DNA from: a virus
Lineage: Duplodnaviria > Heunggongvirae > Uroviricota > Caudoviricetes
Length of the DNA: 8,771 bases
IMG/VR virus record: IMGVR_UViG_2700989507_000003
Reading direction: 5' to 3' (one strand)
The notes under the pieces are model-generated. The model saw only the letters and a list, made by a program, of their open reading frames with translations, had not been told where the DNA came from and ran no database searches. Of this stretch, positions 2,711 through 8,718 are shown one piece after another. A program made the position numbers and the translations under genes. The stretch's first letter is position 1; the number at the start of each line of letters is the position of its first letter.

Positions 2711-2742
2711 CAAAAACAACAGGCATCCCGGAGGATGCCTGT
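2711..2742 (-). terminator. Intrinsic-terminator-like hairpin on the operon strand, about 35 nt upstream of the J start
   Basis: Perfect 10-bp inverted repeat ACAGGCATCC / GGATGCCTGT (2719-2728 and 2733-2742) with a 4-nt loop. On the minus strand it is followed by TGTTTTTGTG (2718..2709), and on the plus strand it is preceded by an A-tract. Read directly from the sequence; function not demonstrated. Confidence 0.4.
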
Positions 2743-2876: not shown

Positions 2877-2907
2877 CCCGCAGCCTTCGGTCACTGCGGG
2901 ATTTTTT
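2877..2907 (+). terminator. Intrinsic-terminator-like hairpin oriented on the plus strand (antisense to the tail operon), abutting the I stop codon
   Basis: 7-bp stem CCCGCAG (2877-2883) / CTGCGGG (2894-2900) with a 10-nt loop, followed on the plus strand by A then TTTTTT CGC TTTT (2901-2914). On the minus strand the hairpin is followed by AACAGAAAATG, so it is not terminator-like in the operon direction. Confidence 0.4.
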
Positions 2908-2912
2908 CGCTT

Positions 2913-4937: not shown

Positions 4938-5266
4938 CAGTTCACCACCTGCTTAAACTCCGCGCTGAACTCAACGCGCAACATCCCGACCCGCGCAGAC
5001 CACCCGGCACAGGTCACCTTTATCTGCCGGTATGCATAGGGTGGCTTCCACAAAAATGCCTTCCAGCCCCCGTGCTCTGCCAGAAACGCTTCCAGATGCC
5101 GGGCCTCCTCCCGGGTCACGGAAAGCGTCACCCGGTATGTTTTCAGGTCAGCATTCAGCCCTGCCGCCATACGCTGTGAGTACCCGTCACCAAAACGCAC
5201 TTCACGCACCGATGGCTGTGAGTTCACCTCCATATCCGGCTTCACTTTCCAGCGAAAGGTTTTCAT
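4937..5266 (-). CDS. M: Minor tail protein M (109 aa)
   Basis: ORF-track ORF 4937..5266(-). MKTFRWKVKPDMEVNSQPSVREVRFGDGYSQR...RVEFSAEFKQVVN has the same length as lambda gpM and near-identical termini as I recall them. The start ATG overlaps the H stop as ATGA (5266..5263). Confidence 0.92.
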   Translation of the reverse strand: MKTFRWKVKPDMEVNSQPSVREVRFGDGYSQRMAAGLNADLKTYRVTLSVTREEARHLEAFLAEHGGWKAFLWKPPYAYRQIKVTCAGWSARVGMLRVEFSAEFKQVVN

Positions 5267-7875
5267 CGCCCGCTCCCTGATAACATACCGCCATCACGCA
5301 ACTGCAGCCGGAGCTCATCCTGCGCCCCCTTGCGGGCCATGTCATACACCGCCTTCATCAGCTGCGGCCCCGCCTGTCCGTTGGTGCCGTCGTTCTGAAT
5401 CACCACGTGATTGTTCTGATTAAAATTAATGCCTTCCGTCCGCCGCATCTGCGCCGGACTTCCGGCACCGCCCACATAACCACCTTCCGCATAGCCGCGC
5501 ATCAGACGGTAAAGATTCCCCACACCTATCCGGCTGGTTGCCTCTTTCGTGAAAACAAACTCCCCGCGGTGAACTATCCCCGCAGGCTCATATTTGCCGC
5601 CCGTCCCCGTAAATCCTCCGGTCGCGAAATGGAAGTTCGCCGCCGCAGCCTCAATGGCCGTCCCCGAGGAAGCAGATGCACCACCACCGAAAGCACCGCC
5701 AATGGCGCTGCCGATACGCCCGACAATGCCCACCATGGCCTGTTTAAGCAGGATTTCTGTCATCATGGACAGCACAGAACGGGTGAATCCCCGCCAGTCT
5801 GCCTCTGCACCGGTCAGCATCGCCGCCATATTCTGTGCAATACCGTCAAAGGTCTGCGTGGCAGCACTTTTAACCTGCGAAAAACTGTCCGTCGCACTTT
5901 CCGCCCACTCGCCCCAGCCGGACTTCAGCCCGGCCATCCAGCTTCCACGAAGCTGCTCCTCCGCAGACCAGGTGTTCTTCAGTGCCGATGTGGCCTTCGC
6001 CAGCGCAGCCGGATTATCACCGTACACGTCCCGAAGACGCTGCGCTTCAGACTCCCGCTGCGCCTGACGGTCAGTGAGACCGCGGGCTTTTGCGCTGATG
6101 GCGGCCTGCTTCGAGCTCTGCTGCTCTTCAAACCGCACCGCCTGCTGTGCCAGCTCATTCAGGCGTTTCTGGTATTCAACCTTGTCGCCCAGCTCAGCCA
6201 GCTGGCGTTTGTACTCCAGCGTCTCGTCTTTATGCGCCAGCAGGGATTTTTCCTGCTCAGATAACTGTCGTTTCGTGGCAGCCTCTTTCAGGACCGCATA
6301 CTGACTTTCCGCCTTCCATAAATCACGGCGCTGCCGGCTGATTTTCTCATTCGCACCGCTGTGTTTTTCCAGCGTCCTGAGCTCAGCTTCAAGGGCAAGC
6401 AGAGCCTCTCTTGCCTGCTCCTCTTCCCTCTCCCCGGCAGAGCGCGTTTTCGGTGATGTATGCTTTTTACCTGTCAGCTCTTCAGCCAGACGGCTGACGG
6501 CTTCCTGCTGCCCTGGACCTTTGCTGACGCCTGTTGCACGCGAGCGGTTGATGTACCCTATTTCCCCCTGGCGTATACGCGCATCCCGTTCCGCAATGGA
6601 TTTTCTCAGCGCCAGTTCATCGCGTTTTGTTTTCTCAATAAATACGCGGTTCTCTTCTGCCAGTTCACCAAACAACGCACCAACGCCGGGCACATTCTTT
6701 GTCGTTTCCCAGGCTGACTGAATAAATTCAGCCAGCGCCAGATCCCCCTGCACAAGCAGCAGCTTCACTTGTTCAACGGTTCCGGCCACCACGTCAGTGA
6801 TCAGACTGAGTGCCCCCAGTGTATGATCACCTATCCATGCCCATGCGTCAGAAGTCCAGGTTTTAACATCGTCCCAGATTTTTTCCACCGGCGTGGCCGC
6901 TTTATCAAGTTGCTCCAGACGTGCATTCATGACATCCGCAAACAGGGACATCGCCTCCGTCACCGCAGCCTGTTTACCTTTCGTGCGCTCAAGCTCATCA
7001 ATATGGCGTAACTGGGAAACGCTCAGGAAGTTATACTGCTGATTCAGGGAGGCCAGCGCCTTCACCGGATCTGCTGCAATCCCTTCAAAGGCTTTTTCCA
7101 CCTTCCCGGCATCGTCCCCCACCGTCTGCAGCCATCTCTGAGAGGTTTCCCCCATGATCCGTAGCTGCCCGGCGGTATATTTCCCGCTTTCTGCCAGACG
7201 GGCCAGATTTTCTGCCGCCTGTCTGATACCACCACCGGCTTCATCGCTGATCACCCCGGCCATTTTCCACAATTCTGCCGTTGTGGTGGCAGCCGCCCCT
7301 CCGGTCAGGATCAGTGAACGCAATAAGGCCCGGTCAGCCTGCTCTGCCTGCCAGGCGGCGGCAGCAAGCGCGGCCAGTACGGCAACCCCGCCACCTGCCG
7401 CCACACGGGCCACCGACATAAATCGTCCCAGCTCACCGGCATTCCGGGCATTTTCAGCCAGTGCATTTGCCGTATCTGACAGCGACTCCTCTGATGATTC
7501 AGAGGCATCCCTGATCCCGAGAAGTTCCTCCTTCAGCAGGGTAAGCAGGCTGAGCGGTCCACCGAATGAATCGCTGATCTGCCCCCCCTGCTGCAGCATG
7601 ATAAGGAAGGGATTCTGACCACCGGCAAGCTGAGTGACAATATCCGTGAACTGTGCGGGCAGTGTGCGCATGGCAGCCTTATACTGTCCGACTGATATCC
7701 CGGCTTTTTGTGCCGCCAGCGCCTGTCGGCTCAGCCCCTGTTCAACAGTACTGGCGGTTTTTCTGGCATCCGCCTCCAGACTGGAAAAATGACGGCGTAC
7801 CCGGGCCATCTGTTCATCAAACCGGGCCGCATCCAGACTCAAATCAATAACCAGATCACCCGCTGGCTGGGACAT
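5263..7875 (-). CDS. H: Tail tape measure protein H (870 aa)
   Basis: ORF-track ORF 5263..7875(-). N-terminus MSQPAGDLVIDLSLDAARFDEQMARVRRHFSS... and the C-terminal third (...LEAELRTLEKHSGANEKISRQRRDLWKAESQ...FHFATGGFTGTGGKYEPAGIVHRGEFVFTKEATSRIGVGNLYRLMRGYA...) resemble lambda gpH as I recall it; the central region is Ala/Gly/Glu-rich and helical in character. GGAGG lies 8 nt upstream of the ATG (7888..7884). The start overlaps the T stop by 20 nt. Confidence 0.93.
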   Translation of the reverse strand: MSQPAGDLVIDLSLDAARFDEQMARVRRHFSSLEADARKTASTVEQGLSRQALAAQKAGISVGQYKAAMRTLPAQFTDIVTQLAGGQNPFLIMLQQGGQISDSFGGPLSLLTLLKEELLGIRDASESSEESLSDTANALAENARNAGELGRFMSVARVAAGGGVAVLAALAAAAWQAEQADRALLRSLILTGGAAATTTAELWKMAGVISDEAGGGIRQAAENLARLAESGKYTAGQLRIMGETSQRWLQTVGDDAGKVEKAFEGIAADPVKALASLNQQYNFLSVSQLRHIDELERTKGKQAAVTEAMSLFADVMNARLEQLDKAATPVEKIWDDVKTWTSDAWAWIGDHTLGALSLITDVVAGTVEQVKLLLVQGDLALAEFIQSAWETTKNVPGVGALFGELAEENRVFIEKTKRDELALRKSIAERDARIRQGEIGYINRSRATGVSKGPGQQEAVSRLAEELTGKKHTSPKTRSAGEREEEQAREALLALEAELRTLEKHSGANEKISRQRRDLWKAESQYAVLKEAATKRQLSEQEKSLLAHKDETLEYKRQLAELGDKVEYQKRLNELAQQAVRFEEQQSSKQAAISAKARGLTDRQAQRESEAQRLRDVYGDNPAALAKATSALKNTWSAEEQLRGSWMAGLKSGWGEWAESATDSFSQVKSAATQTFDGIAQNMAAMLTGAEADWRGFTRSVLSMMTEILLKQAMVGIVGRIGSAIGGAFGGGASASSGTAIEAAAANFHFATGGFTGTGGKYEPAGIVHRGEFVFTKEATSRIGVGNLYRLMRGYAEGGYVGGAGSPAQMRRTEGINFNQNNHVVIQNDGTNGQAGPQLMKAVYDMARKGAQDELRLQLRDGGMLSGSGR

Positions 7876-8320
7876 ATCTCACACCTCCGGAAATCCCCGC
7901 TGAAGCCATCATTAATGCAACATCATCCTCGCTGACATCCACCACATCCGCAGAAGGTGAAATATCGCGCCCTCCGTCCCCTCCGAACCGGACGCCTCCG
8001 GCAACTCCTGTCGCTTTCTGCATCAGCATTTCTTCCTCGTCCGGCATCTCCGTCTGCTCTTCCTCACACGCTGGAGCAAGCAGACTGAAATCCGCCGGAT
8101 GCATATCCGGATCGCCAAAAAACAGGCTGAGTACGGCGTACATCAGCCCGGAAAAATGAGCGTCCAGTTGGGTATCCTGAAAATAATGCGTGCAGTAAAA
8201 ACGTCGCCAGTCGGCATATTCGGTGGATGTCATCCCGGCAAGCATGGCGCGCCAGTCGGGTCTCCCCATCTCTCGCGCCAGTTTCAGGACAAAGTTCAGC
8301 TCGCCTTCGAATGCTTTTTT
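7856..8320 (-). CDS. T: T segment of the tail assembly chaperone G-T fusion, read in the -1 frame from the slippery site; predicted fusion is G residues 1-135 + AFEGELNFVLKLARE + the 137-aa T ORF, about 287 aa
   Basis: The -1 frame relative to G is open from 8332 (in-frame TGA at 8335..8333) to the stop at 7858..7856. It contains ORF-track ORF 7856..8269 (MGRPDWRAMLAGMTSTEYADWRRFY...DPDMHPADFSLL...GGVRFG...), which resembles lambda gpT as I recall it. The ATG at 8269 has no convincing Shine-Dalgarno sequence, consistent with expression only as a G-T fusion as in lambda. Confidence 0.85.
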   Translation of the reverse strand, partial: KKAFEGELNFVLKLAREMGRPDWRAMLAGMTSTEYADWRRFYCTHYFQDTQLDAHFSGLMYAVLSLFFGDPDMHPADFSLLAPACEEEQTEMPDEEEMLMQKATGVAGGVRFGGDGGRDISPSADVVDVSEDDVALMMASAGISGGVRYVPASG

Positions 8321-8718
8321 GATGTTACCGGCTCAGTCGCTTCTGCTTTCCCGGTTTGTTCAGGATCGGCATCGTGCCGGTTATCCAGCATACCTGAAAG
8401 ATAAAGCACCCGGTTCGTTGCCTGATTCAGTGCATCAGCAGGCCATCCCAGCATCACTTCACGGCGGATCTGCTGCATCTCTGTCTCCGGAGAGGCCAGA
8501 GTGCCTTTGAGGGAATGGGAATGCCATAGCGACATCGCCACAAGCAGGGATGCCGTTTCCAGATATCGCTGGTTAATGTGCACGACATAATGCTTCGTTG
8601 TCTCCTGTTGTTCTGCGTCTGAAACAAACTTTATATAATCAAACCGCTGCAGCGCAGACAATTCGGAAAGCGTGACGGACACACCGTTATATTCAAATTG
8701 TTCTGTTTTCAGAAACAT
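8296..8718 (-). CDS. G: Tail assembly chaperone G (140 aa)
   Basis: ORF-track ORF 8296..8718(-). MFLKTEQFEYNGVSVTLSELSALQR... has the same length as lambda gpG and an N-terminus and central LVAMSLWH motif matching my recollection of it. GGAGG (8729..8725) lies 6 nt upstream of the ATG. Followed by T in the -1 frame. Confidence 0.9.
   Translation of the reverse strand: MFLKTEQFEYNGVSVTLSELSALQRFDYIKFVSDAEQQETTKHYVVHINQRYLETASLLVAMSLWHSHSLKGTLASPETEMQQIRREVMLGWPADALNQATNRVLYLSGMLDNRHDADPEQTGKAEATEPVTSKKHSKAS
8314..8320 (-). promoter_or_regulatory. Programmed -1 ribosomal frameshift slippery heptamer A_AAA_AAG (G into T)
   Basis: The minus strand reads ACA TCA AAA AAG CAT in the G frame (K134, K135), i.e. 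X_XXY_YYZ = A_AAA_AAG. It lies 16 nt upstream of the G stop, and the -1 frame is open from here through T. Same heptamer class as E. coli dnaX. Confidence 0.75.

Follow-up and report, generated by a model that had tools for sequence, protein, structure and literature searches.

A very probable lambda-type G/T frameshift at an A_AAA_AAG heptamer occupying the lambda slip position in the tail module of a Stx1a-converting prophage

Two heptamers of slippery appearance, A_AAA_AAG and an upstream GGGAAAG, lie near the end of gene G in the prophage studied here, and the locus raises the question of whether translation passes from G into the overlapping T reading frame, and at which of the two. The window, that is, the whole stretch of 8,771 nucleotides that was analysed, carries on its minus strand a tail module comprising the end of V and then G, T, H, M, L, K, I and J, in which M, L, K and I are lambda homologues downstream of H and the start of J runs beyond the window edge. 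The host element is a lambda-like Stx1a-converting prophage with its tail module on the minus strand; the G-T region was 100.0 % identical to that of the Stx1a-converting phage Stx1_9793, and VT1-Sakai and CP-1639 showed ~95 % identity to the window. G and T form an overlapping ORF pair between V, annotated immediately upstream in relatives, and H. Gene G (8718..8296, minus strand; ATG 8718..8716, TGA 8298..8296) encodes a tail assembly chaperone of 140 aa with a Phage_TAC_2 domain (PF06894, E = 7.5e-35), and the tape measure gene H (5263..7875, minus strand; 870 aa, Pfam TMP_2 and Tape_meas_lam_C) starts 20 nt within the end of T.

The T frame lies at -1 relative to G and is open from position 8332 only, a TGA in the -1 frame (8333..8335, minus strand) setting the upstream limit of a productive shift, which must accordingly fall within the 34 nt of 8332..8299. 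All in-phase positions from this -1-frame stop to the G stop were scanned for X_XXY_YYZ heptamers, and A_AAA_AAG (8314..8320, minus strand) was the only one found. This heptamer, present as a single copy in the window and read as (TC)A_AAA_AAG in the G frame, is phased such that two tRNA-Lys could slip back in tandem by one base; the in-phase tetramer A_AAA (8320..8317) overlaps it and would give the same protein product. The gap between the heptamer and the G stop is 15 nt (8313..8299), or 16 if counted from base to base. Reading in the T frame would begin with the codon GCA (8314..8312), and the T part of the fusion (7856..8314, minus strand) extends to the stop at 7858..7856. The fusion of about 287 aa predicted in the initial annotation was rebuilt as join(8718..8314, 8314..7856) and came to exactly 287 aa, with Phage_TAC_2 followed by Phage_tail_T (PF06223, E = 3.4e-11 in Pfam).

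Occurrence by itself singled out neither heptamer, since against shuffled sequence AAAAAAG was found once in the whole window with 0.71 expected, and GGGAAAG likewise once with 1.30 expected. Their significance must therefore come from phase and conservation; that of AAAAAAG rests on phase, position and conservation, none of which GGGAAAG possesses. The latter (8346..8352, minus strand) is read as GGG_AAA_G, that is, as the codons GGG AAA plus a G, encoding Gly123-Lys124 of G. It shares its letters with the lambda slip site and lies 32 nt upstream of the A_AAA_AAG heptamer, and the initial annotation had viewed it as a displaced lambda-type heptamer that may be a relic or the source of a minor truncated product. 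Although all its heptamer coordinates and frame statements held when rechecked, this interpretation of the upstream heptamer appears extremely unlikely. A -1 slip at GGG_AAA_G would leave tRNA-Gly opposite CGG and tRNA-Lys opposite GAA, each mismatched in the first base of the codon, and any -1 event there would run through CGG GAA AGC AGA AGC GAC TGA and terminate at 8335..8333. In addition, E. coli genes show no avoidance of GGGAAAG when it is phased XXX_ZZZ_N (z = +1.85; PMC4066793, Table S3).

For a comparison of the junction, the final 27 codons of G were set out in phase for the window, lambda (J02459) and seven annotated relatives. The G gene of lambda ends with ...TCT GCG GGA AAG TGT TCG ACG GTG AGC TGA, and that of the window with ...ACA TCA AAA AAG CAT TCG AAG GCG AGC TGA. 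The slip sites thus stand at the identical codon position, each separated from its G stop by 15 nt; the A-site Lys codon AAG is common to them, and both continue as xxT TCG AxG GxG AGC TGA. This identity of codon position and of spacing to the G stop indicates that the lambda site has been substituted in place (GCG GGA AAG to TCA AAA AAG) rather than moved, and the notion of a displaced lambda-type heptamer thus loses its ground, A_AAA_AAG occupying the very codons of the lambda G_GGA_AAG. The upstream GGGAAAG aligned in frame, with no indel, with GAG GAC G of lambda. Gene order (V, G, T, H) and Pfam families are the same in lambda and the window, the GT proteins are 57% identical, and in both the -1 frame enters the common T start xFxGELxFxLKLAREMGRPDWRAMLAGM. 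The two nevertheless differ in the central part of G (residues about 26-130), where the window allele departs from that of lambda, in the productive overlap, which is 34 nt in the window versus 61 nt in lambda, and in the P-site codon, AAA (Lys) in the window versus GGA (Gly) in lambda, so that both slipping tRNAs are tRNA-Lys in the window only. PMC5009743 and PMC3296357 cite Levin et al. 1993 for the experimental proof of the lambda site. By homology, the locus is thus a member of the lambda G/GT family, which bears out the initial view that a tail-chaperone -1 frameshift of this kind is not a new mechanism.

The conservation of the two heptamers was assessed at 84 loci with an intact G, taken from annotated phages and IMG/VR. 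The G allele of the window was present at 71 of them, and all 71 carried AAAAAAG at the homologous position, although the neighbouring codons vary; the remaining 13 had lambda-type G alleles, with GGGAAAG at the homologous position in every case (13/13). For the upstream heptamer, the 71 loci with the A_AAA_AAG allele divided into GGGAAAG (51), GGGAAAA (12) and GGTAAAG (8), so that it was altered in 20/71 close relatives. Six ASU11-type loci lack the -1-frame TGA (ACT to ACA) and have an overlap of 61 nt, yet the phase of their upstream heptamer is still wrong. The initial annotation had looked to an alignment of the G-T junction with homologous prophages for a decision on which heptamer is conserved in phase, and the alignment spoke for A_AAA_AAG, kept in phase throughout, while GGGAAAG varied. 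The upstream heptamer drifts like any codon pair. With its wrong phase, its in-frame counterpart in lambda, its variability and its chance frequency, it is an incidental Gly-Lys codon pair with no role, and not a relic.

About 644 of 5426 complete E. coli genomes (about 12 %) carried at least 80 % of the window segment 8240-8420, and up to 7 places per genome matched it when matches of any length were counted. The A_AAA_AAG version is therefore a common prophage allele and not an oddity. A sequencing error near 8333-8352, which had been named as a possible cause of the non-lambda phasing, is likewise excluded, since the identical junction occurs in 45 independent loci and in these E. coli genomes, and no indel was found relative to lambda G.

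The wider family was surveyed through distant G/T pairs from Kluyvera, Atlantibacter and Entomohabitans prophages and from 80 IMG/VR contigs at 45-66 % protein identity. A scan of genome contigs returned mostly lambda DNA in unrelated assemblies, and informative loci came only from Kluyvera, Atlantibacter, Entomohabitans and Escherichia. G_GAA_AAG stood at the slip position in 71 of the 80 distant loci; G_GGA_AAA, A_GAA_AAG and G_GCA_AAG occurred as single cases, and one distant locus (L196) had A_AAA_AAG itself. Over ~190 related loci, the slip position held mostly G_GGA_AAG, A_AAA_AAG or G_GAA_AAG, the P-site codon varying among Gly, Lys, Glu and Ala and the constant part being the A_AAR lysine core only. 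The distance from the site to the G stop was 15 nt almost throughout, the exceptions being Entomohabitans and the loci L105/L120 with 3 nt. The window heptamer is thus one of several interchangeable versions of one site. The G_GAA_AAG variants, which occur in the Kluyvera, Atlantibacter and Entomohabitans prophages as well as in IMG/VR contigs, share with it homologous G/T genes, the same position, the A_AAG core and candidate downstream helices, but their P-site GAA (Glu) codon would re-pair on GGA only via a G.U pair at the middle position, making them in effect tetramer sites.

The six consecutive A residues within the heptamer call for consideration of transcriptional slippage, in which RNA polymerase would insert one A into the mRNA and so yield the fusion. 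As the extra A would give the identical protein (...SKKAFEG...), protein sequence cannot separate ribosomal from transcriptional slippage. However, bacterial transcription slips productively on runs of about 8-9 or more A/T (PMC3711429), compared with A6 here, and the homologous G_GGA_AAG, G_GAA_AAG and G_GCA_AAG sites have A3-A4 only at the same place, indicating that the conserved feature is the A_AAG codon geometry and not a homopolymer. Moreover, frameshifting at the lambda site responds to tRNA-Lys modification, which points to a ribosomal event (PMC3296357). Polymerase slippage is thus a very improbable source of the fusion, and ribosomal slippage at A_AAA_AAG is preferred.

A free-standing T ORF of 137 aa, from ATG 8269 to 7856, is also present in the ORF list; in GenBank and RefSeq, T is entered as an ORF of its own from this internal ATG, under the names 'minor tail protein T' or 'phage tail assembly protein T', which we counted against the fusion. 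If T were translated independently from ATG 8269, no fusion would be necessary. The T frame, however, is open for 21 codons before that ATG (AFEGELNFVLKLARE), and these codons are kept as protein across the family, in every lineage and even where the nucleotides differ. ATG 8269 itself encodes the Met of the LAREMG motif, for which other lineages have Phe (LAREFG) and hence no start codon at this place. Furthermore, the T sequences of lambda are made only as gpGT, according to Levin 1993 as reported in PMC5009743. An independently translated T that dispenses with the fusion therefore seems most improbable.

Taken together, we consider it very probable that the locus employs the well-known lambda-type G/T programmed -1 frameshift at A_AAA_AAG, a site homologous in position to that of lambda; the initial assignment of this heptamer as the slip site leading into the open T frame is thus supported by its being the only in-phase candidate and by its conservation. 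From the observed anatomy, phase, homology and conservation we infer slippage itself and its rate as follows. Most ribosomes would read G to its TGA and produce the 140-aa chaperone gpG, and a few per cent would slip back by one base on A_AAA_AAG (8320..8314). At the moment of the slip, tRNA-Lys(mnm5s2UUU) would occupy AAA in the P site and AAG in the A site, and in the -1 frame both tRNAs would again be perfectly matched, to AAA AAA. Translation would then continue in the T frame to 7856, giving the 287-aa gpGT with the predicted junction peptide ...VTSKKAFEGELNFVLK. If gpGT works as it does in lambda, its G part would bind the tape measure protein and its T part would recruit the major tail protein. 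In E. coli, AAA and AAG are read by one and the same tRNA-Lys (mnm5s2UUU), whose better pairing with AAA renders A_AAG shift-prone (PMC5009743).

In lambda, GT amounts to ~4 %, and the G:GT ratio matters for tail assembly (PMC3296357; PMC5009743); a prophage tail-chaperone cluster showed 6-7 % frameshifting in E. coli reporters (PMC3711429). The initial annotation had supposed that the ratio may differ here from that of lambda. When Sharma et al. (2014) compared all 64 heptamers within the same E. coli reporter, AAAAAAG gave 0.29 % with no stimulator, 4.3 % with the IS911 stimulators and 39 % with the IS3 pseudoknot, and GGGAAAG gave 0.28 %, 3.8 % and 43 %, respectively (PMC4066793, Table S3). 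This near-equal slipperiness of the two heptamers argues against that supposition, and the heptamer by itself gives no reason to expect another G:GT ratio. The lambda rate of roughly 4 % is, for its part, more than 10 times that of the bare heptamer in reporters (0.28 %).

To our knowledge, the classic lambda site is usually described as having no defined stimulator. Upstream of the window heptamer, an anti-SD duplex scan revealed no Shine-Dalgarno-like stimulator at 6-17 nt, no duplex there being better than -4.3 kcal/mol and the best one, GAGCCGGUA, reaching -4.1 kcal/mol. The weak GGGA of the window (at -33) and GAGGA of lambda were considered as Shine-Dalgarno elements and rejected, as they lie ~32-36 nt upstream of the heptamer, which is too far, and are absent in the PhiR12-type allele. 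Downstream, no local hairpin was found in the first 54 nt, which folded worse than shuffled sequence (z = +1.99), and an Rfam search returned no family match, only a chance snoRNA match (E = 0.71). When 114 nt were folded, however, a long-range helix beginning 8 nt past the heptamer appeared (MFE -39.4 kcal/mol, z = -1.99). The initial statement that there is neither a Shine-Dalgarno element nor a strong hairpin thus stands for the 6-17 nt upstream and the 54 nt downstream, but is only partly right in view of this candidate fold at longer range.

In this candidate long-range helix, predicted by MFE folding, RNAalifold and pair counts, the 5' strand GGCGAGC (8299..8305, minus strand), which abuts the G stop, would pair with the 3' strand GCUUGCC (8237..8243, minus strand). 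It would enclose a candidate inner hairpin (8245..8280, minus strand), in which UGGCGCG (8280..8274) pairs with CGCGCCA (8251..8245) and which is nearly invariant. RNAalifold recovered the outer helix from alignments of 17 and of 38 non-identical relatives, the input sequences being related to one another. Pair 8305-8237 was G-C in 16/38 and A-U in 22/38 and mispaired in none, pair 8303-8239 alternated between C-G and U-G, and in the G_GAA_AAG lineages the outer helix is two pairs longer with a spacer of 6 nt. The stem codons showed little synonymous variation (Leu CTG 0.09 bit, Ala GCG 0.09, Asp GAC 0 and Ala GCC 0.22), and the loop codons and those immediately flanking the helix showed much of it (Gly 1.0, Arg 2.2, Pro 1.5 and Gly 1.75). 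On the other hand, true covariation was confined to one helix pair and probably reflects one or two evolutionary events; the outer helix contains a G.G mismatch in 11 of the 38 sequences, breaks of the inner helix among relatives are uncompensated, and the 5' strand of the outer helix falls in the dual-coding overlap of G and T. A predicted structure has also been flagged for the lambda gpG cluster, with the entry 'N/Y' (Sharma et al., PMC4066793, Table S4). We therefore put forward only tentatively, as a rather doubtful possibility, that the lambda G-T family carries a conserved two-helix RNA element acting as a 3' stimulator 6-8 nt past the slip site, and any help that it lends to slippage is likewise what we infer. 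If so, the classic lambda site may have its missing stimulator in this family-wide downstream helix.

Though unannotated, the locus belongs to the lambda G/GT frameshift family as an ordinary member, with a well-known heptamer at the canonical position. Its biological import is small, in that a common E. coli prophage allele, of Shiga-toxin and other prophages, uses A_AAA_AAG at the lambda position. For annotation, T should be given as a G-T fusion by ribosomal slippage, with the coordinates of the join above. With tRNA-Lys slipping in both the P and the A site, this allele may also have a G:GT ratio that is more sensitive than that of lambda to the mnm5s2U34 modification state of the host, as extrapolated from PMC3296357.

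The A_AAA_AAG heptamer is known from other systems. A tail-chaperone cluster of the O157 Sakai prophages with this heptamer is listed as a true case (PMC4066793, Table S4), and its member ECs1801 of E. coli O157 Sakai (cluster A_AAA_AAG_25) agrees with the window in heptamer, host and biological role. That this cluster might represent the G gene of the window was nevertheless rejected, as it belongs to a different chaperone family, in which the motif falls at the extreme end of the gene and a 124-aa protein is extended to 226 aa, compared with the 140-aa Phage_TAC_2 protein extended to 287 aa in the window. E. coli dnaX shares with the window the identical heptamer, the host ribosome and the single tRNA-Lys (PMC5009743). 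In dnaX, the SD-like element AGGGAG precedes the heptamer by 10 nt, a stem-loop follows it after 6 nt, and frameshifting reaches about 50 %, whereas the window has neither an SD-like element at that distance nor a local hairpin. The outcome of the shift is also reversed, the frameshift product being the shorter one in dnaX and the longer one in the G/T pair of the window.

A candidate two-helix RNA element (window 8237..8305, minus strand; alignments A2 and A4) may be conserved throughout the lambda G/T family, where it would begin 6-8 nt 3' of the slip site. One pair of the element covaries (G-C / A-U) and its stem codons show little synonymous variation in these alignments. A search of Rfam for the element gave no family match. 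On the 5' side, the only anti-SD-like matches near the slip site were GGGA in the window (8346..8352; -4.3 kcal/mol) and GAGGA in lambda (L003; -5.8 kcal/mol), which occupy homologous codons about 32-36 nt 5' of the slip site; the PhiR12-type allele lacks such a match. A role of GGGA/GAGGA as a 5' stimulator was rejected, because this distance exceeds that of known 5' stimulators.

In public records, including RefSeq PGAP, T is given as a separate ORF starting from an internal ATG (8269, minus strand), and the feature tables of the five loci compared (L001, L002, L004, L005 and L089) contain no G-T fusion by ribosomal slippage. The annotated start is the Met codon of LAREMG, the same place being occupied by Phe in other lineages.

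The end of T, compared with window 7856..7960 in L001, L004, L005 and about 25 IMG/VR loci, was found in two architectures. The window-type end gives a fusion of 287-290 aa and a 20-nt overlap of T with the start of H, and the VT1-Sakai-type end gives a shorter fusion of 252 aa, terminating in ...GGVRFGEEGRRL, with about 43 nt between T and H. Mosaic joints directly adjoin the slip site when three loci are set against window 8200..8330: L084 joins a lambda-type G with GGGAAAG to a window-type T start, L082 combines a lambda-type G with a window-type T end, and in L068 a G of the window type is followed by a T ending in the alternative way. The highly conserved opening ~100 nt of T probably act as a recombination point.

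G is interrupted in phage 204576 (L006, CP025907.1), which has a truncated frame of 76 aa, and in the Shigella flexneri record L114 (CP182557.1), by multiple stops; the cause in both records is either prophage decay or faulty assembly. Lambda-like G-T DNA was also observed on short, low-coverage contigs (genome_contigs loci L092-L097, L099-L104, L109-L111) in assemblies of unrelated organisms, namely Neobacillus, Oceanobacillus, Kitasatospora, Chromatium, Shewanella, Paenibacillus, Leeuwenhoekiella, Enterococcus, Pseudoxanthomonas and Psychrobacter. The junction is exactly that of lambda in L092-L102 and L109-L111, and L103 and L104 are without an intact G. These contigs are almost certainly laboratory lambda DNA contamination.

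Further along the tail module, a strong terminator-like hairpin (2719..2742, minus strand), with a 10-bp stem containing 6 G-C pairs followed by a T run, lies shortly 5' of the J start, and a second terminator-like site is located at 2896..2910 on the plus strand. The hairpin falls inside the gap between I (ending at 2913) and J (starting at about 2677), which spans 235 nt in the window; the corresponding gap in lambda is much shorter.
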